Origin: Candidatus Aminicenantes bacterium
GTDB taxonomy: Bacteria; Acidobacteriota; Aminicenantia; Aminicenantales; JAFGBC01
Reading direction: 5' to 3'
NCBI GenBank assembly: GCA_963702005.1
Contig: OY969696.1
Location: 224,001-288,000 of the forward strand
Length of the DNA stretch: 64,000 nt
The translations under genes and the position numbers were made by a program. The notes below the pieces were generated by a model that was not told the origin of the DNA, ran no database searches, and saw nothing but the letters and a program-made list of their open reading frames with translations. Shown one piece after another: positions 36,486 to 56,470 of the stretch (position 1 is its first letter; every line of letters begins with the position of its first letter).

Positions 36486-37484
36486 GTGACCATCCTCCTC
36501 GTCGTTATCATCGGCCTCGCCCTCCTCTTCGACTTCATCAACGGCATGAACGACGCGGCCAATTCCGTGGCCACGATCGTCGCCACCCGGGTTCTCACCC
36601 CCCGCCTGGCCGTTCTCTGGGCGGCCTTTTTCAACTTCATCGCGGCCTTTTTTTTCGGCGTCCATGTCGCCACGACCATAGGGAAGGGAGTCGTGGATTC
36701 GGCCGCGATCTCATCGTTAATGATATTGGCTACCTTGCTGGGCGGTATCATCTGGTCCTACCTATGCACTCACATGGGTTTTCCGATCAGCGTCTCTCAT
36801 TCCCTGGTCGGAGGCTTGGTCGGATCGGCGATCGTGAAAACCGGATTCCATGCCCTCATTCTGCCTGGCCTCCTAAAAATCTCGCTTTTCATCTTCTTGG
36901 CTCCGCTCATGGGGATGATCTTGGGATACGTGATCATGATCATCGTGTATTGGACGGTCCGCCATAAGCCCCTGCGGGCCGTGGACCGGTTGTTCCGCCG
37001 GCTCCAGCTCTTATCGGCGGCCCTCTATAGCCTCGGTCACGGCACCAACGACGCCCAGAAGACGATGGGGATCATCGCCATGCTTCTTTTCAGCGCGGGC
37101 CGCCTCGGTCCCGAATTCCATGTCCCCCTCTGGGTCATCCTCAGCTGCCATTTCGCGATCGCGATGGGGACGCTGAGCGGCGGCTGGCGCGTCATCGAAA
37201 CATTAGGAATGAAAATGACCAAGCTTAGGCCCGTCCACGGCTTCAGCGCCGAGACGGCCGCCGCCGCGTCCATTCTCTTCTCATCCGTCATCGGCGCGCC
37301 AGTCTCCACAACCCACACCATCACTGGTTCAATCATCGGCGTCGGAGCCACGACTCATTTTAAGTCCATTAGCTGGGGCATGGCCTATCGCATCGTCTGG
37401 GCTTGGCTGCTGACCATCCCTGGTTCGGCCCTGATCTCGGCCGCTGTCTGGCTGGCCATGTCCGCCCTCGGCCTTACATCCTAA
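36486..37484 (+). CDS. pit: PiT inorganic phosphate transporter
   Basis: NGMNDAANSVAT, PISVSH, HGTNDAQK, PVSTTH. Confidence 0.94.
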   Translation: MTILLVVIIGLALLFDFINGMNDAANSVATIVATRVLTPRLAVLWAAFFNFIAAFFFGVHVATTIGKGVVDSAAISSLMILATLLGGIIWSYLCTHMGFPISVSHSLVGGLVGSAIVKTGFHALILPGLLKISLFIFLAPLMGMILGYVIMIIVYWTVRHKPLRAVDRLFRRLQLLSAALYSLGHGTNDAQKTMGIIAMLLFSAGRLGPEFHVPLWVILSCHFAIAMGTLSGGWRVIETLGMKMTKLRPVHGFSAETAAAASILFSSVIGAPVSTTHTITGSIIGVGATTHFKSISWGMAYRIVWAWLLTIPGSALISAAVWLAMSALGLTS

Positions 37485-38361: not shown

Positions 38362-38437
38362 TGGTGGACGGTAGGGGATTCGAACCCCCGACCTCAGCGT
38401 TGCGAACGCCGCGCTCTCCCAGCTGAGCTAACCGCCC
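38362..38437 (-). tRNA. tRNA-Ala (CGC)
   Basis: 76-nt cloverleaf GGGCGGTTAGCTCAG...TTCGCAA loop...GGTTCGAATCC...CCA; G3:U70 identity pair. Confidence 0.97.
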
Positions 38438-38632
38438 ACGCTCACCGCCCGGGCCGGCAGGCTCTCTAATTTACCATGTCGCCGGAATATTTTCCAGATC
38501 GATCTCGGACGGCGGATCCGGTTTTCAAAACAGCCTCGCTCCCCTTCAACCTTCAATGGTCGCTTCGGCTGTTATGAAAACCGGTTCTTGCTCGAGGAAG
38601 TCATCTTAGTTACAATTTTGTCCACAGGGATA

Positions 38633-40264
38633 ATGGATATTAAGATTTTCGGCAAGAAACAGGCGGAGGGACATGGCCGCTGCAGCATACGTAAAGCCCG
38701 GGTGGAATACAAGATCGAAAAAATCGCCGGCGGCTTGATGGTCACCGGCGCCGTCCGCGGCGGGCCGGGACGGTTCGAGATCGTCCGCCTGCCGGCGCCC
38801 CGCGAGTTCCTCCTCAACAACTGGCAGTCCTGGGGTCCGACCCAGAAGGTGACCAGGGAAGCGCGTTTCCCCGAGCTCGAAGCGATCCAGCGGGACTACA
38901 GCCCCTACCTCTTCTCCCCCGTCCCGGACCTGATGGCGCGGGGGCTCGTCAGCGATTATTTCGCGGCCGGCGACTCCTGGCTGGCCGGCTTCCTGGCCTC
39001 CCGGATCGCGCACCCTTTCTTCACCGTCGAGGGCGGCGACCTCGTCGGATACTTCGATTATTTTGATTTCCGTTCCGATGAGCCCGTCCCGCTCGAGCCG
39101 CTCGTTTTCCTCGAGGGGACTCCCGTCGAAAGGCTTCTCGGCCGCTATGCCGCGCTGGCCCAGGCCGAGAACGGCATCGTCATCAATCCCTGGAACCCGA
39201 TCGGATGGTGCAGTTGGTATCACTACTTCGGCAAGCTTGCGTGGGAAGACGTCCTCAAGAACCTCGATATCGCCCGGAGCGTCCCCGGCTTCCCCTTCGA
39301 GGTCTTCCAGGTCGACGACGGCTACGAGACCGACATCGGCGATTGGCTCGAGGGCCGGCCCGGATATCCGGCGCCGGCCGAGATGGCGGCGGCCATCCGC
39401 TCCCGCGGCTTCCGGGCCGGCATTTGGACGGCCCCCTTCAGCGCGGCCGAGACATCGCGGCTGTTCCGGTCCCATCCGGACTGGATGGTGTCCGAGGCGG
39501 GCCGGCCCAAGCCCTCCTATCGCGGCTGGAAAAAAACGATCTACGCCCTCGACACGAGCCGGGCCGACGTCCGCGCCTGGCTCGCGGAGGTGTTCGGAGC
39601 CTTGAAAGCGGCCGGGTTCGATTACTTTAAAATCGACTTCCTGTTCGCCGCCGCCATGCCGGGCGATCGAGCCCGCCCCCAAACGCCTGTCCAAGCCTAT
39701 CGGGAAGGGTTGAAGGCCGTCCGCGAGGCCGTCGGCCCATCTTCGTTCCTCCTCGGCTGCGGGGCGCCCCTCCTTCCTTCGGCCGGCCTGGTCGACGGGA
39801 TGCGGATCGGCGAGGACACGGCGCCGTTCTGGAAGACCAAGCCCTCGGCCTTCCAAGGCCCGAACGCCTATTTCGCCCTCAAGAATACCCTGATGCGGTC
39901 CTTCCTACACAAGACCCTCTGGCTGAACGACCCGGACTGCCTCCTGCTGCGTCCGAGCGAGATCGAGCTCTCCGAGAACGAACGGGCTTGCTACGCCCTG
40001 GCGGCCGGAGCGCTGGACAACATGATCCTGGACAGCGACGACCTGTCCCTCATCAACGATGCGGGGCGGTCCCTCCTCGGACAGACCCTGCGTCTGCGGG
40101 GCGGCCGGGCCGTCGTCCGCGGCCTCCTCGGCGACGATTTCTACTTGATCGAGTCGAGGGGAGGTCCGGCCGGACCGCTGGACCTGGCCGTGAACCTCTC
40201 GGATGAGCGCCGCCTCTACAAGGAGCGCGCCGTGCCGCCCAGGAGCGCCGTCTTCATCCGTTGA
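38633..40264 (+). CDS. Alpha-galactosidase (GH36)
   Basis: GWCSWYHYF, FQVDDGY, GIWTAPF, YFKIDFL, LGCGAP, MRIGED, WLNDPD. Confidence 0.9.
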   Translation: MDIKIFGKKQAEGHGRCSIRKARVEYKIEKIAGGLMVTGAVRGGPGRFEIVRLPAPREFLLNNWQSWGPTQKVTREARFPELEAIQRDYSPYLFSPVPDLMARGLVSDYFAAGDSWLAGFLASRIAHPFFTVEGGDLVGYFDYFDFRSDEPVPLEPLVFLEGTPVERLLGRYAALAQAENGIVINPWNPIGWCSWYHYFGKLAWEDVLKNLDIARSVPGFPFEVFQVDDGYETDIGDWLEGRPGYPAPAEMAAAIRSRGFRAGIWTAPFSAAETSRLFRSHPDWMVSEAGRPKPSYRGWKKTIYALDTSRADVRAWLAEVFGALKAAGFDYFKIDFLFAAAMPGDRARPQTPVQAYREGLKAVREAVGPSSFLLGCGAPLLPSAGLVDGMRIGEDTAPFWKTKPSAFQGPNAYFALKNTLMRSFLHKTLWLNDPDCLLLRPSEIELSENERACYALAAGALDNMILDSDDLSLINDAGRSLLGQTLRLRGGRAVVRGLLGDDFYLIESRGGPAGPLDLAVNLSDERRLYKERAVPPRSAVFIR

Positions 40265-40390
40265 GATTTTATCAACACAGCGAACCGCTTCCTTGCGGGG
40301 CTTGTTGTGGGATTTTGAACGGCGGCTTTCTTGGCGGGGCCCCCGCCACCTTGGCTCCTTTAAACGGGGACCCCTCCTTTCTCAATTTTC

Positions 40391-40458
40391 AGTAGATGCC
40401 TATAAGCCGGCCGCGTCAACCCCTTGTCGTATTATGTCGCATCATGTCGCATTGTGTC
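40391..40458 (-). promoter_or_regulatory. Divergent promoter with 10-bp tandem direct repeats upstream of its -35
   Basis: TTGACG (40419-40414)-17-TCTACT (40396-40391); repeats TGTCGTATTA TGTCGCATCA TGTCGCATTG TGTC at 40425-40458. Confidence 0.6.
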
Positions 40459-40543
40459 TGTCCGAGCCCGGGAGCCGGGCCGGCCTGGGGCCGGACCTTG
40501 ACTGCTATGTCCATTTCCGAATATATAATATAAAGAGATTGCT

Positions 40544-41911
40544 ATGGCCCCGTCCGGTCCGAAGAAAGAGGAGAGGCTGGCCTCCTGGAAGGAAATCGCG
40601 GCCTACCTCGGATGCGACGAGCGAACCTGCCTCCGCTGGGAAAAGAAGCTCGGCCTCCCCGTTCATAGGATGGAGGGCGCTTCTAAATCCCGGGTTTTCG
40701 CCTACCGGGAGGAACTCGACCGCTGGATGCGGGAACGGATCACTTTGGCCAACGTTCCAACCCCTCTCTTGCAGCCGCGACTTTTCCTCCGCAAGTCCCA
40801 CCGCGTCTTTGTTGCGATCGCGGCATTGGTCGGGGTCGCCATCGCCGCCATCTGGATCGGATCAAGGACCGGTTCGATTCCGTCTAATTTCCGGATTGAG
40901 GACTCGACCTTCTTCGCCCTGAATAAGAAAGGCCGGACCCTCTGGAGCTACAACACGGGGTTGTTCAATCTCAGGGACGAGAGCTTTTATCGAGACCGTT
41001 TCCAGATCAAGGTCCGGGCTAAGACTGAGGATGCCCTATTCCCCCTGCTTTTGATGAAGGACATCAACGGGGACGGCCGGGCCGAGGTCCTGTTCGCTCT
41101 TAAGACCCAGGACGAGTTCAACGAGGGCCGTATTTTGTGCTTCAACGACCGGGGAAAACTCCTCTGGGACTTCGCTGCGGGCAGGGAACTCCTCTACGGC
41201 GACGCCATCTACGCGAGGGATTACAGGGTCGCGGGGATAGGGCTTCACGATTTTGACGGCGACGGCCTTCCCAAAATATTCTTTTTCGCCTACCAAAAGC
41301 CCGACTTCCCTTGCCAGCTCGGCGTCCTCAACGCCAAGGGCGAACTCATCGGAGAGTATTGGAACTCGGGCTTTTTCTCCGACATCGTCTTCCTGGATAT
41401 CGACGGGGACGGCCGGGACGAAGTCCTGGCCGCGGGCCTCAACAACGAATACGGGAAAGGGTGCCTGGTCGCGTTCGCCCCCGACCGGATCTCGGGCAGC
41501 TCCCCCCAGAGGAATCCCGCGTTCCTGTGCCGAGACCTCGCGCCCGGGTCCGAGCTCTTTTACGTCTTGTTCCCGAGGACCGACGTCGACCTGGCCGAAT
41601 ATCCGGTCGAATGCATCATGACCATCGACATTCTCCGGAACCACCGCATCTACTTGAACGCCCTGCTCAGCCGGATCTTTTTCGAAATGACCCCGGCCAT
41701 GGAGTTGGTCCTGGTCCACTCCAGCCATAGTTTCCAGAAGATGCACGCCGAGGCCGTCCGCGCGGGAAAGGTTCGGAGCAGCCTCGAGCCCGCTTATTTC
41801 GAGAGGCTGAGGCGCGGCGTCCTTTATTGGAACGGGACGGACTGGGTTTCCACCCGGACCCCAAACTTGAGAAACGCCAAGACAGGGACGCCCCTCGTTC
41901 CGATAAAATAG
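40544..41911 (+). CDS. Membrane-anchored protein: Xis/MerR-like HTH + TM + FG-GAP repeats
   Basis: LASWKEIAAYLGCDERTCLRWE; TM VFVAIAALVGVAIAAIW; DINGDGRAEV, DFDGDG, DIDGDGRDEV. Confidence 0.85.
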   Translation: MAPSGPKKEERLASWKEIAAYLGCDERTCLRWEKKLGLPVHRMEGASKSRVFAYREELDRWMRERITLANVPTPLLQPRLFLRKSHRVFVAIAALVGVAIAAIWIGSRTGSIPSNFRIEDSTFFALNKKGRTLWSYNTGLFNLRDESFYRDRFQIKVRAKTEDALFPLLLMKDINGDGRAEVLFALKTQDEFNEGRILCFNDRGKLLWDFAAGRELLYGDAIYARDYRVAGIGLHDFDGDGLPKIFFFAYQKPDFPCQLGVLNAKGELIGEYWNSGFFSDIVFLDIDGDGRDEVLAAGLNNEYGKGCLVAFAPDRISGSSPQRNPAFLCRDLAPGSELFYVLFPRTDVDLAEYPVECIMTIDILRNHRIYLNALLSRIFFEMTPAMELVLVHSSHSFQKMHAEAVRAGKVRSSLEPAYFERLRRGVLYWNGTDWVSTRTPNLRNAKTGTPLVPIK

Positions 41912-41944: not shown

Positions 41945-42367
41945 TCAGTGACTCCCCTTGATCGTGATTTTAAGGACAAAGGAATCGATGAAGGCCTCTT
42001 TTTCCCACGGGCGGCGCAGCCGGAGCTCGAGCTCCCCGGACCCCGCCTTCAACGCCTTGAACACCATGACCTTGGTCCCGCCCCGTCCCACGATCCGGGG
42101 ATCGGCCGTTTCGGCCTCAAAGCTCTCAGATTCGGGTCGCAGCAGACCCTCCGGGATCTTTACGGCGGCCCAAGTGTAGCCCGTGGTCGGGTTCTCGGGA
42201 AGGCGGATCTCGAAGTTCTCTCCCACCTCCAGCTCGCAGGTAGTCCCGCTATCTGTTTTGACGAAAGCCTTCATTGCATCCACCCGCTTCGGATTCTCGG
42301 GCTGCCTCGAGCAGCCCGAGAGCGCCGCACCCAGGATCAAGCCGAGGAGAATACTAAGCCCTTTCAT
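41945..42367 (-). CDS. Chagasin (I42) protease inhibitor lipoprotein
   Basis: Lipobox LSGC; LPENPTTGYTW, VGRGG, RRPWE. Confidence 0.92.
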   Translation of the reverse strand: MKGLSILLGLILGAALSGCSRQPENPKRVDAMKAFVKTDSGTTCELEVGENFEIRLPENPTTGYTWAAVKIPEGLLRPESESFEAETADPRIVGRGGTKVMVFKALKAGSGELELRLRRPWEKEAFIDSFVLKITIKGSH

Positions 42368-43923: not shown

Positions 43924-44487
43924 ATGGCCCCCCACGACGACAGCCGGATCATGAAAGACGTCCAGGAGGGCGAGGTTGAAAAGCTGGCCATTCTTTTCGA
44001 ACGGCACCACCTCTCCCTCTACAACTTTTTTCTCCGCCTGACCGGGAACCGGGCCGCCAGCGAGGACCTCGTCCAGGACGTCTTCGTCCGCATCCTCAAA
44101 TACCGTTCCAGCTTCCAGGCCCAGGGCCCTTTCGCCGTCTGGATGTACCAAATCGCCAGAAACGCGCATATCGACCACATCCGGAAACGCCGGGATAAGG
44201 ACACGCTCCCGCTCGACGACCAATGGGCCGAAGCCGTCAGCCCGGAACCCCCGCCCGAAGCGGCCCTCGAATTCCGCCGGGACCGGATCCTGATCAGGAA
44301 GGCTCTTGATTCGCTCCCGGAGAAGAAACGGGAGGTCCTGTTGCTGAGCCGATTCCAAGACCTCAAGTACAGGGAGATCGCCAAGATCCTCGGCAGCAGC
44401 GAAGCCGCCGTTAAAACCATCGTCCACCGCTCGCTCAAGGAGCTGGGCAAAGCCTTCGCCGCCCTCCAGGAAGGAGTAACCTCATGA
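43924..44487 (+). CDS. ECF RNA polymerase sigma factor
   Basis: SEDLVQDVF, WMYQIARN, LPEKKREVLLL, YREIAKILG; TGTAACC motif at 43860. Confidence 0.93.
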   Translation: MAPHDDSRIMKDVQEGEVEKLAILFERHHLSLYNFFLRLTGNRAASEDLVQDVFVRILKYRSSFQAQGPFAVWMYQIARNAHIDHIRKRRDKDTLPLDDQWAEAVSPEPPPEAALEFRRDRILIRKALDSLPEKKREVLLLSRFQDLKYREIAKILGSSEAAVKTIVHRSLKELGKAFAALQEGVTS

Positions 44488-45305
44488 ATTGCCAGGAGAT
44501 CCAGGACCGCTTCGTCGATTTCTTGACCGGCGACGCCGCCCCCGACACCCAGAAAAAAGTCCGGGCGCACGTCGCTCTCTGCGCCGCCTGCCGCGAGGAG
44601 CTCGAGACCATGACCCTGGCCTGGACCAAGCTGGGCGTCCTTCCCGAGCAGAAGCCCGGGCCGGCGCTGAAGACCCGGTTCTACACGATGCTCGAGACCT
44701 ATAAAGACCGCTTGGAGGATGAAGTCATCGAGACGGGGGGACGCCGCCGGGCGCGGTTCGCCGCTTGGCTCGCGGGCCGCTGGCCCAAGACCCCGGCGCT
44801 CCAGCTGGCTGTATCGGCCCTATTCCTCGCCGCCGGCCTTCTGGCCGGATTCCTCCTGAAGCCCGGCGCGGCCCGCTTCGCGGAGATCGCCCGGCTCGAG
44901 GCCGAGGTCCGGGACATGCGGCAGCAAGTTTCCCTTTCCCTGCTGGACCGCTCCTCGCCCAGCGACCGGCTCAGCGGGCTGAGCGTCGCCTCCCAGGTCC
45001 GCGACCCGAATCCCCGGACCCTCGACGCCCTGTTCAGGGCCCTCGACGAGGACTCGAACACGAACGTCCGGCTTGCGGCCGTGGACGCGCTCTATCTGTT
45101 CCGGGACGACGCCCGCGTCCGTAAGGGCCTGATCGATTCCTTAACCCGGCAGACGTCGCCCCTGGTGCAGGTCGCCCTCATCAACCTTCTCGCCGACATC
45201 AAGGAGACCCGGGCCGCCGAGGCCCTCAAGAGCCTCATCGCCGACCGCGCGCTCAGGCCCGAAGTCCGGCAGAAGGCGGAGTGGGGACTCCGGAAGCTCA
45301 TCTGA
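44484..45305 (+). CDS. Anti-sigma factor: zf-HC2 + TM + HEAT repeats
   Basis: HVALCAAC; DSNTNVRLAAVDAL; QTSPLVQVALI; ATGA overlap. Confidence 0.88.
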   Translation: MNCQEIQDRFVDFLTGDAAPDTQKKVRAHVALCAACREELETMTLAWTKLGVLPEQKPGPALKTRFYTMLETYKDRLEDEVIETGGRRRARFAAWLAGRWPKTPALQLAVSALFLAAGLLAGFLLKPGAARFAEIARLEAEVRDMRQQVSLSLLDRSSPSDRLSGLSVASQVRDPNPRTLDALFRALDEDSNTNVRLAAVDALYLFRDDARVRKGLIDSLTRQTSPLVQVALINLLADIKETRAAEALKSLIADRALRPEVRQKAEWGLRKLI

Positions 45306-55145: not shown

Positions 55146-56470
55146 TCACTTGACCCAATCGGGGAACGTGCTGAGGGTGCTCAATCCCGCGTAGGGAGAG
55201 GACATGTATTCAAGGTTGTTGACGACGGCCAGAAGCCCGCGTTCTTTTTGTAGAGGTTCGTCGTATGAATTCTCGACAGGAACAGCTGCGGCGTCCCTGT
55301 CGCATCGGAAGCGACGATTGGGGTGAAAGCGTCGAACTCGGAATATGTGATATAGGCCGGGTCATAACTGAAGGCATGGACCAGGTTGCCCAGAGTCAGC
55401 TTTTTGGTCTGGACGGGGACGCCTCCGTAATTGAGACGGACCAGGCTGAAGGTATGCTTATCCTTTTCCAGCCTCCGTTGGGCCTCGGGAATCTCCTTGG
55501 TTTTCTTGATGAAAAGCCATAGGTCCGTCTTCGATCCGGGATAGGGCGCCAGCCAGAGCTCCCCGTACCAAGTTAAAGGATCCTTGACGGATTCGATCTC
55601 GGTCAGATAAACGGAATGCGAGGCGTCGCCGCTGACCGCAAGAACCAGGGCTTCGTGAAGATAGAGGTCGTCCCAGCTGCCCGGGCTGCTGTAAACAGAG
55701 TCCGCGACCGGAACCAGCCAATACGACCCATTCCAGACGGGGCGATAAACATCGCAGAAGATAAAGCTCCCGTCACCCAGGACGGGCAGGAAGACGGGAG
55801 CGCCCGTGCGCCCTCCGGTCTGGAGATCGGCCTCGACGAAATAGGATAAAGATTTCCGCATCCGCCAGGGCGAGACGTCGTTGATGCCGACGCTGAAAAC
55901 GACTCCGATGACGTCTCCCCGGTTGCAGGCGAACAGGTCCGATCCGCCCAAGTACGTGCCTTTCGGGGTCGTCGTCCTCCAGATCTCTTTCCAGGCGCTC
56001 GTCCGCTGCCCGGTCGCCCCGAACTTGGCGACTCGAACCGTCACCGTCGACCATTCAGGATTGGAATGGTCTTCCTCGAAGAAGACGTAAACGAGGCCGT
56101 ATCCACCGGCGGCGGACGGGCCGGAGCCCGAGGCCGCGATCCAGAGCGCGGCGGCGTTGCGGGGCGACCCCATCCCCGAGCCGAACGTCCGCGAAGAAGA
56201 ACAGGCGCCGGTCTTGGACAGCTGGAAACTCAGCAAGCTCGCGGGGCCGCCGGACGCGCTCTTGTTGACGGCGAAAGCGACGCACGAGGATTCCGAAACC
56301 GGGGCCATGTCCAGGATCCCTTTGAAGACGCTGAAACCCGTCGGGGCGAGCGTCTTAAGCGGGTAGGGAGGCGCGACGCCGTCCCGAGATCCGGCTGGGG
56401 CGCCCGCCCGGGCTGAAACAAGCCATCCGGCCGATAACAAAAGACAAATCGCCACGCGGTTTTTCTTCAC
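55146..56470 (-). pseudogene. Secreted paralog 1 of tandem array, frameshifted by a 3' internal deletion
   Basis: ORF ends at 55181, but homologous tail GLLAVVNNLEYMSSPYAGLSTLSTFPDWVK* continues in another frame to 55146. Confidence 0.75.

Follow-up and report, generated by a model that had tools for sequence, protein, structure and literature searches.

A predicted membrane-tethered regulator with a BldC/excisionase-type DNA-binding head, and a candidate operator of phased direct repeats, in Candidatus Aminicenantes

A 64-kb stretch of DNA from a Candidatus Aminicenantes bacterium (assembly GCA_963702005.1, contig OY969696.1, positions 224,001 to 288,000; G000:C1:224001-288000; hereafter, the window), part of a closed genome of 4,309,361 bp (4.31 Mb), contains an open reading frame (ORF) on the plus strand (40544..41911, numbered within the window) coding for a protein of 455 residues. 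A DNA-binding head, one membrane helix, an FG-GAP propeller and a C-terminal alpha/beta part can be recognized in this protein, which is referred to below as the regulator. Upstream of its gene lies an array of short direct repeats, a candidate operator (40425..40458, plus strand), and beyond the array a putative promoter that reads outward, away from the regulator gene (40391..40419, minus strand), faces a putative non-coding unit of about 110 nt (40274..40386, minus strand). An earlier reading of this DNA, made from its letters alone (the sequence-only reading), had proposed a ToxR-like one-component regulator with a BldC-type head, sensing a periplasmic ligand and acting through the repeats on a tiny divergent target. 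The analysis presented here followed up that proposal; other loci used for comparison are designated by L numbers.

A full-length AlphaFold2 (AF2) model of the regulator, built with a 34-sequence alignment, had a mean predicted local distance difference test score (pLDDT) of 89. It places a winged helix-turn-helix (wHTH), predicted to be cytoplasmic, at residues ~12-66 (40577..40741, plus strand), with helices at 15-22, 26-36 and 55-66/70 and a beta wing at 41-54; the order of elements is strand, helix, helix, two-strand wing, helix, and the motif WKEIAAYLGCDERTCLRWE corresponds to residues 15-33. A low-confidence linker of about 16-20 residues (67-82) connects this head to a single membrane helix, whose hydrophobic stretch (residues 88-106; 40805..40861, plus strand) lies within the AF2 helix 83-109 and is conserved as a block in the family alignment. 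Four basic residues are found on the N-side of the hydrophobic stretch. Since this basic cluster precedes the membrane helix, the positive-inside rule suggests an N-in orientation, with the head in the cytoplasm. The remainder of the protein would lie outside. Residues ~113-345 (40880..41578, plus strand) form a predicted extracytoplasmic beta-propeller, matched by the Pfam families FG-GAP_3 (E 1.5e-7), FG-GAP and Beta-prop_CGLA (a lambda-carrageenase-type propeller; E 4.2e-9). It carries three calcium-loop-like motifs: DINGDG (173-178), DFDGDG (236-241) and DIDGDG (285-290). Three DxDGDG loops had been announced; the three loops are there, two of them exact and the first being DxNGDG. A Foldseek search with the full model returned generic propellers only (designed Cake proteins, a PQQ protein, BamB, integrin alpha-V, CylK and rhamnogalacturonan lyase), and no ligand could be read from the fold. 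The C-terminal alpha/beta part (residues ~346-455; 41579..41908, plus strand) has high pLDDT and conserved columns and no Pfam match. The models and profile matches support an architecture of cytoplasmic wHTH, one membrane helix and outside propeller, in line with the head, helix and external domain of the sequence-only reading.

All Pfam helix-turn-helix (HTH) matches to the head were below threshold (HTH_17 reached 14.5 bits, against a cutoff of 27), as were two NCBIfam matches, one to the excisionase-family domain TIGR01764 ('excise'; E 2e-4, 21.6 bits, cutoff 28.8) and the other to the MADS1 defence HTH. The OmpR-type domain (Trans_reg_C) gave no Pfam match at E<=1. A profile built from 78 heads was then searched against all Protein Data Bank (PDB) sequences: the DNA-binding domain of lambda gpNu1 (1j9i) was the best match (E 1.2e-4 over 59 positions, residues 16-74), RacA came second (E 3e-3) and BldC matched weakly (E ~0.5). 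Further, an AF2 model of the head alone (pLDDT 77.5) was matched by Foldseek to RacA, the RdfS excisionase, gpNu1, BldC, P2 Cox, Pukovnik Xis and MerR-family regulators, with probabilities of 0.96-1.0 and E values of 0.01-0.1, as expected for a domain of 60 residues. The BldC structures 6ama_B and 6amk_A gave a Foldseek probability of 0.99, and the gpNu1 structure 7lw0 superimposed with a template modelling (TM) score of 0.59 by query length and 0.80 by target length (root mean square deviation 1.7). Because the PDB profile matches and the Foldseek matches agree, the head is assigned, at the level of these models, to the MerR-like wHTH domains of the excisionase/gpNu1/RacA/BldC group and not to the OmpR-type winged helices; a head of BldC/Xis type had been named beforehand.

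The array contains 3.4 direct repeats of a 10-bp unit composed of TGTCG and an AT-rich half. The units start at 40425, 40435 and 40445, followed by a TGTC at 40455; Tandem Repeats Finder reported a period of 10, 3.4 copies and 0 indels, so the exact 10-bp periodicity seen by the earlier reader held. The unit pattern matched four times in the window, where 0.47 matches were expected, and none of 100 shuffles reached four. Three units at 10-bp spacing occur once in the whole genome. A lone repeat unit lies at 55298-55307, in coding-looking sequence and without neighbouring units, as chance could produce.

The outward promoter consists of a -35 element, TTGACG (40414-40419), a 17-nt spacer and a -10 element, TCTACT (40391-40396); 5 nt separate its -35 from the first repeat, the geometry of the divergent promoter that had been proposed. 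On the other side of the array, a candidate for the regulator's own promoter (40498..40529, plus strand) contains TTGACT (40498-40503), 18 nt and TATATA (or TATAAT after 20 nt), the regulator ATG following 14-16 nt after the -10; it was not called by a consensus scan. A TTGAC[GT]-17-TATAAA arrangement close to the ATG recurs in orthologues. By eye, it stands 4-16 nt before the ATG, with no Shine-Dalgarno sequence, in the window (40498-40543) and in L005, L006, L021, L023, L024 and L025, so the mRNAs of this family may be leaderless or nearly so. A third candidate, a minus-strand promoter inside the repeats (CAGACA-18-CATAAT), was rejected, being by eye not conserved in L005 and L006.

The regulator belongs to a large family. 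At least 362 homologues of similar length were found at E<=1e-3 among the candidates scored, the best 120 of them being 41-72% identical across 84-99% of the length, and a family match at E<=1e-20 exists in 45 of the 61 genomes compared from the same order. Close homologues are from Candidatus Aminicenantes, while distant members (25-35% identity) are found in Bryobacterales, Solibacteraceae and other Acidobacteriota. The annotations of the homologues read 'hypothetical' or 'VCBS repeat-containing' and, in two cases, 'excisionase family DNA binding protein'. In other proteins, this head (SWKEIAxYL...RTxxRWE) is followed by one hydrophobic helix and then by TPR arrays or PD40-type propellers, and it is therefore a module of a wider set of membrane-tethered proteins. 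One such paralogue lies in the same genome (L002; G000:C1:3626261-3626428, minus strand): its head is 58% identical over residues 11-65 and leads, via one hydrophobic helix, into TPR repeats; the sequence upstream of its gene showed no repeat array.

Repeats were sought upstream of up to 80 family loci, in two ways. In a self-similarity scan of the 300 nt upstream of full-length family loci (periods 7-14, threshold of at least 17/24 matches), 14 of the 69 rows with at least 300 nt upstream passed the threshold, all 14 at period 10; two of them, L009 and L039, represent a single locus, leaving 13 distinct positives. The 99.9th percentile of 1380 shuffles was 17, and none of the shuffles reached 19. 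A strict pattern, TG[TC]C three times at 10-nt spacing, was scanned in 67 distinct full-length loci and was present within 300 nt upstream in 14 of them. These 14 clusters lie in 19,912 nt of upstream sequence, compared with three in the 341,345 nt elsewhere (both strands), an enrichment of ~80-fold. Each of the three 'background' clusters (L015, L055 and L025) also has a family gene next to it. Those of L015 and L055 are found past the 3′ end of the regulator gene and immediately before a gene for a secreted protein (289 residues in L015; an 878-residue SBBP/DUF7948 protein in L055), so targets need not be divergent from the regulator gene. In L025 (oriented positions 277-1412), the array lies 1.2 kb upstream, separated from the family gene by an inserted transposase gene (HTH_32, rve_3). 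The same repeat words were found on the opposite strand in L061 and L064 (27-31% identity), and the TPR-type loci L107/L093 have four units of the same kind, which links the array to the head and not to the sensor. From its recurrence in the background, opposite-strand and TPR-type loci, the array appears to travel with the head across families, sensor types and neighbourhoods.

On the side from which the units read away, a TTGAC -35 is usually found, followed by 16-17 nt and a TAnnnT/A hexamer (by eye). The complement of TTGAC was present at 25 nt or less from the array in 15 of the 25 array-bearing loci examined. The gap between array and outward -35 was 5 nt in six loci (all of one genus), 15 in seven, 25 in one and 14 in one, that is, 5, 15 or 25 bp in 14 of the 15. 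A gap of 15 was also recorded in L015 and L025 and, by eye, in L014 and L079; also by eye, TTGATT stands at 15 in L107/L093, and TTGCCA and TTGCTT stand at 5 in L021/L024. Between the array and the -35 of the regulator gene itself lie 39-40 nt in the window's genus and 17 to 157 nt elsewhere. Gaps of 5, 15 and 25 bp put the array on one face of the helix relative to the outward -35; this phased geometry, together with the arrays found before other genes, ties the array to the outward promoter. Activators use sites immediately upstream of the -35 and in phase with it, and the position of the array favours activation.

The repeat unit can be compared with the sites of BldC. The consensus of 60 units from 17 loci was T-G-T-C-G-C-A-T-T-W; position 8 was T in 52 of the 60, and the search had imposed positions 1-4 only. 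Read on the other strand, the unit is an AT-rich half, 4 nt and then C. BldC forms head-to-tail multimers of variable length on 9-bp direct repeats, AATTXXXX(C) (PMC5859096, in part), and by analogy the present unit follows BldC logic with one extra base per unit. The resemblance extends to the head. In BldC, Arg30 recognizes the G of a pyrimidine-guanine step, backbone contacts come from Trp31, Thr27, Thr29, Lys33 and Asp24, Lys26 touches bases and Glu16 lies in the subunit interface (PMC5859096, in part). The head of the regulator has E17, D25, R27, T28, R31, W32 and K34, spaced as in BldC at an offset of +1. In the family alignment, E17, T28 and R31 are invariant, D25, R27 and W32 are nearly so, and K34 is not conserved; R31 and W32 fit Arg30 and Trp31 of BldC both by pattern and by the aligned ranges of the PDB profile match. 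The invariant positions of the head are W15, K16, E17, T28, C29, R31, E33, P39, R42, E57 and W61. A complex prediction with two copies of residues 8-72 of the head had a score of 0.00, which gives no answer either way.

Two features of the recognition helix, RTCxRWE, may be mentioned separately. Cys29 (40628-40630) is invariant in the 34-sequence Aminicenantes alignment and is A or V in distant, Bryobacterales-type homologues; a redox role for it is conceivable. The residue at x varies with base 5 of the unit, as far as few independent lineages can show: every Leu-bearing locus has G or C at this base, and the loci with Tyr (L007/L010) or His (L107) have A.

What the outward promoter faces differs among lineages. 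Outside the window's genus, it precedes genes with ribosome-binding sites and signal-peptide-like starts, coding for FG-GAP proteins (L036, L079), a GDSL lipase (L050/L057), an SBBP propeller with DUF7948 (L055), secreted proteins without family (L023, L064, L015, L034) and a stand-alone receiver domain (L107/L093). In the window's genus, about 110 nt only separate the outward promoter from the hairpin that terminates the convergent upstream gene. This stretch is present in a single copy in the window's genome; its covariance model, R1, matched at G000:C1:264274-264386 and was found once per genome in three of three genomes of the genus and in none of 58 other genomes of the order. Aligning the genus loci (L004, L005, L006, L112, L113 and L114, whose regulators are 62-72% identical to that of the window) showed the repeats, the outward -35, the -10 and ~55 nt downstream, including a GGAGGGG, to be nearly invariant, and the spacer on the regulator side of the repeats to be unalignable. 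In L112 and L114, a gene with a CxxCH motif takes the place of the alpha-galactosidase gene past the terminator, and the ~110-nt unit is kept; the unit is thus associated with the regulator rather than with the upstream gene.

RNAfold and RNAalifold predict a 5′ hairpin in the unit (40333..40377, minus strand), in which the Shine-Dalgarno-like GGAGGGG is paired with a C-rich stretch downstream; in the RNAalifold structure a terminator hairpin follows. The latter (40273..40307) has U-rich tails on both strands and contains a terminator-like match on the plus strand (40287-40301). It terminates the alpha-galactosidase gene and probably the outward transcript as well. It is kept in relatives, with minus-strand T-runs in L112, L005, L113 and L006. 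No Rfam family matched within 40200-40600 at E<=10.

The tiny divergent target of the sequence-only reading did not survive comparison as a peptide. A 37-residue ORF with a TTG start (40272..40385, minus strand) is disrupted in relatives by indels of 2-4 nt that shift its frame, and its start is CTG or absent; nor is the frame kept from an internal GTG start in L005, L006 and L112-L114. What survives of that claim is, at best, a non-coding unit of ~110 nt confined to this genus. A sigma-54-like GG-N10-GC spacing noticed by eye in the conserved block was dropped, as unsupported in GC-rich DNA.

The pattern of conservation makes it probable that the unit is a small non-coding RNA, or else a regulatory leader without a gene. 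Another possibility, which we regard as rather unlikely, is that it is the decaying leader of a lost target gene, devoid of functional RNA, the regulator having been orphaned in this genus. A Shine-Dalgarno-like GGAGG without a conserved ORF would be explained in this way, and genes for secreted proteins do occupy the same place in other lineages; the covariance model, moreover, matched one genus only. A relic, however, would hardly be expected to keep ~55 nt nearly invariant among loci whose regulators are 62-72% identical, beside a spacer that has become unalignable, or to persist in L112 and L114 after the gene beyond it had been replaced.

The results can be brought together in a mechanism that we hold, with moderate confidence, to be the correct one: a membrane-tethered one-component regulator whose BldC-like heads, lined up head-to-tail along the phased units, switch on the outward promoter, the propeller controlling this assembly from outside. 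Three to four protomers would lie on one face of the DNA at 40425-40458, one per 10-bp unit, each reading the invariant TG step and the AT-rich half much as BldC reads its 9-bp units. The end of the array being half a turn (5 bp; elsewhere 15 or 25) from the outward -35, the oligomer would most likely activate RNA polymerase. A signal received by the propeller would alter how well the tethered heads assemble on the operator. The promoter so controlled would drive secreted or surface proteins in other lineages and, in the window's genus, the ~110-nt non-coding unit only, which would end at the terminator shared with the convergent gene.

Several observations weigh against this mechanism. The similarity in sequence between the head and BldC itself is weak (E ~0.5), the repeat period is 10 bp and not the 9 bp of BldC, and the correspondence of BldC residues was inferred from published residue numbers and aligned ranges, not from a residue-level alignment. 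The outward -10, TCTACT, is poor, without the usual A at position 2, and the promoter was not called by the consensus scan. The position of the array upstream of the -35 favours activation without proving it, leaving room for repression. The sequence-only reading had suggested looking for the repeats next to homologous genes, and the outcome was mixed: arrays lie upstream in 14 of the 67 distinct full-length loci, and none was detected within 300 nt upstream in the other 53. A period-10 scan of TPR- and PD40-type paralogues likewise found most of them without an array and few positive. The array-bearing loci are partly non-independent, six being from the window's genus and L007/L010 from one other genus. 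Further, compensatory changes were seen in two of 28 pairs of the ~110-nt unit, and its single-sequence fold had a z of -1.2 (that of the plus strand was -1.7), so its structure is not established. Finally, three metatranscriptome runs (contigs, same study) contained nothing on 40200-40700.

A stronger version, which we consider doubtful, would have an outside signal converted into a small RNA. Signal-dependent clustering of the propellers would set three to four heads on the repeats, and the sole output in this genus would be a regulatory RNA of ~110 nt with a Shine-Dalgarno-like sequence masked by a hairpin. The SWKEIA-type head would then mark a large and so far overlooked class of membrane-tethered regulators in Acidobacteriota, in which propellers, TPR and PD40 domains serve as sensors and which work as DNA-templated oligomers and not as dimers.

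Among the alternatives to activation, an unlikely one keeps the repeats as the regulator's own operator and makes the protein a repressor or autoregulator: a DNA-bending filament would shut the outward promoter, or tune the regulator's own promoter 39 nt away, and the outward transcript would be incidental. DNA bending is known for BldC- and Xis-type proteins, and BldC acts as an activator as well as a repressor (PMC5859096, in part). The array also lies between two promoters, at a constant distance from the regulator's own -35 within the genus (39-40 nt); however, it overlaps neither core promoter, and across lineages that distance ranges from 17 to 157 nt while the outward -35 keeps its 5, 15 or 25. 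Moreover, the arrays of L015 and L055 are not upstream of the regulator gene, and stand before another gene instead.

It is distinctly improbable, in our judgement, that the head acts after release by regulated proteolysis, as a soluble BldC-like factor on the same operator and target, the membrane form being an inactive store. Release of this kind is known for other membrane-bound regulators (PMC7593790, in part), and a low-confidence linker of ~16 residues (67-82) lies between head and membrane helix. The genes adjacent to the regulator code for an alpha-galactosidase and an I42 inhibitor lipoprotein, with no site-1 or site-2 protease gene among them, and the sequence data do not separate release from the tethered mode.

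Very improbable is the binding of the repeats by some other protein, such as a response regulator of OmpR/PhoB type reading direct repeats with TGTCA-like words, with the array regulating the regulator gene: the core repeat word appears to resemble Pho-box words, a PiT phosphate transporter gene lies 3 kb upstream and TGTCAC pairs 11 bp apart occur elsewhere in the genome, but neither the period nor the word of those pairs is that of the array, several sites would be expected of a global regulator and the 10-bp triple occurs once in the genome, the arrays go along with the head across sensor types, targets and neighbours, and no DNA-binding response regulator is consistently adjacent (the neighbour in L107 is a receiver domain only). 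Response regulators do bind direct repeats (PMC5859096, in part).

Compared with known systems, the tethered, array-binding regulator proposed here would work like a cross between the BldC and the ToxR/CadC types. It shares with BldC of Streptomyces, the founding member of its family, the MerR-like wHTH fold, an operator (here a candidate) built of tandem direct repeats whose number varies and in which 4 bp separate the AT-rich half from a C/G, and, by residue spacing, the basic-Thr...Arg-Trp pattern of the recognition helix and the acidic residue of helix 1, conserved in the family (BldC features from PMC5859096, in part). BldC, however, is a free protein of 68 residues consisting of the wHTH only, and its period is 9 bp; the present protein has 455 residues with a membrane helix and a propeller, and its array a period of 10 bp. 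Not being a small stand-alone protein, it falls outside the BldC family as defined.

With the ToxR/CadC/TcpP type, it shares the N-terminal cytoplasmic head, single membrane helix and outside sensor, a topology resting on AF2 and the positive-inside rule. ToxR/CadC-type proteins activate promoters from direct-repeat operators placed upstream of the -35, a placement that the candidate operator shares. The present head, in contrast, is of the MerR/excisionase type and not the OmpR type, and the sensor is an FG-GAP propeller; having the wrong type of head, the protein is not a ToxR/CadC-type receptor. The term ToxR-like that had been applied to it therefore holds for the topology and fails for the DNA-binding domain, for which no OmpR-type Pfam match was found. 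gpNu1 is the best sequence match among solved structures and a good fold match to the head; unlike the regulator, in which a membrane helix and a propeller follow the head, it is a phage packaging protein with a terminase-assembly domain. Classical MerR proteins have a coiled-coil dimerisation helix and an effector domain, where here a linker and a membrane helix follow the wHTH, and they bind a palindromic operator inside a long-spacer promoter, where here a direct repeat lies outside the promoter; the absence of coiled coil and palindrome sets the regulator apart from them. Nor is it an excisionase: proteins of that kind are small wHTH proteins whose genes lie beside an integrase gene in a mobile element, and neither an integrase nor a mobile element accompanies the regulator (the TIGR01764 match, too, being below its cutoff).

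To our knowledge, membrane-tethered one-component regulators are numerous, few of them have been studied, and those few have OmpR-type heads. A transmembrane transcription regulator has been defined as a protein with a DNA-binding domain and at least one membrane region (PMC10269533, in part), and the present protein, with its predicted head and membrane helix, fits this general definition. The corresponding census of 50,302 transmembrane regulators includes 151 with HTH_17; FG-GAP and VCBS do not occur in the nine supplement files searched, and no operators or targets are given for this type (PMC10269533). Since its HTH_17 match reaches 14.5 bits and the cutoff is 27, the present protein would escape a census based on Pfam. 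The open-access literature searched yielded no publication describing this family or any BldC-like regulator tethered to the membrane. The regulator may therefore represent a so far undescribed type of transmembrane one-component regulator, and would add a second kind of head to the membrane-tethered class, the BldC/excisionase type, of a kind that assembles on direct repeats. A family so far called 'hypothetical' or 'VCBS repeat-containing', widespread in Aminicenantes and other Acidobacteriota, groups with almost no genetics, is provided with a concrete candidate operator whose geometry relative to the promoter is fixed. For uncultured organisms, the genes for secreted propeller proteins, a lipase and a small RNA can be named as candidate targets, and the family offers a system for asking how oligomerisation on DNA may be controlled from outside the cell.

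The genes around the regulator give no hint of its signal. Upstream are the PiT phosphate transporter gene (36486-37484), a gene for a DsbD_2-like membrane protein, a tRNA (38365-38437, minus strand), which was the sole Rfam match in the whole window at the gathering score, and the alpha-galactosidase gene (38588-40264), the next upstream neighbour. Downstream, and convergent with the regulator gene, lies the gene for a chagasin-type I42 peptidase-inhibitor lipoprotein (41945-42367, minus strand), whose position is kept in the genus (L112, L113, L006, L005). No integrase or other mobile element was found among these neighbours, which show no phage context. Farther downstream, a gene for an extracytoplasmic function (ECF) sigma factor is followed by one for a zf-HC2 anti-sigma protein with HEAT repeats (43924-45305, plus strand); in L021/L024, an ECF sigma gene lies 460-575 nt past the repeat array, on the outward side.

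Elsewhere in the genome, pairs of TGTCAC words 11 bp apart were found near positions 1794005, 2219794, 3074663 and 3090846 of G000:C1, two of the pairs being identical. They look like sites of another direct-repeat binder, and may be Pho boxes. Three TGTCA words at 11-bp spacing, a period unlike that of the candidate operator, also lie on the minus strand at G000:C1:193546-193572.

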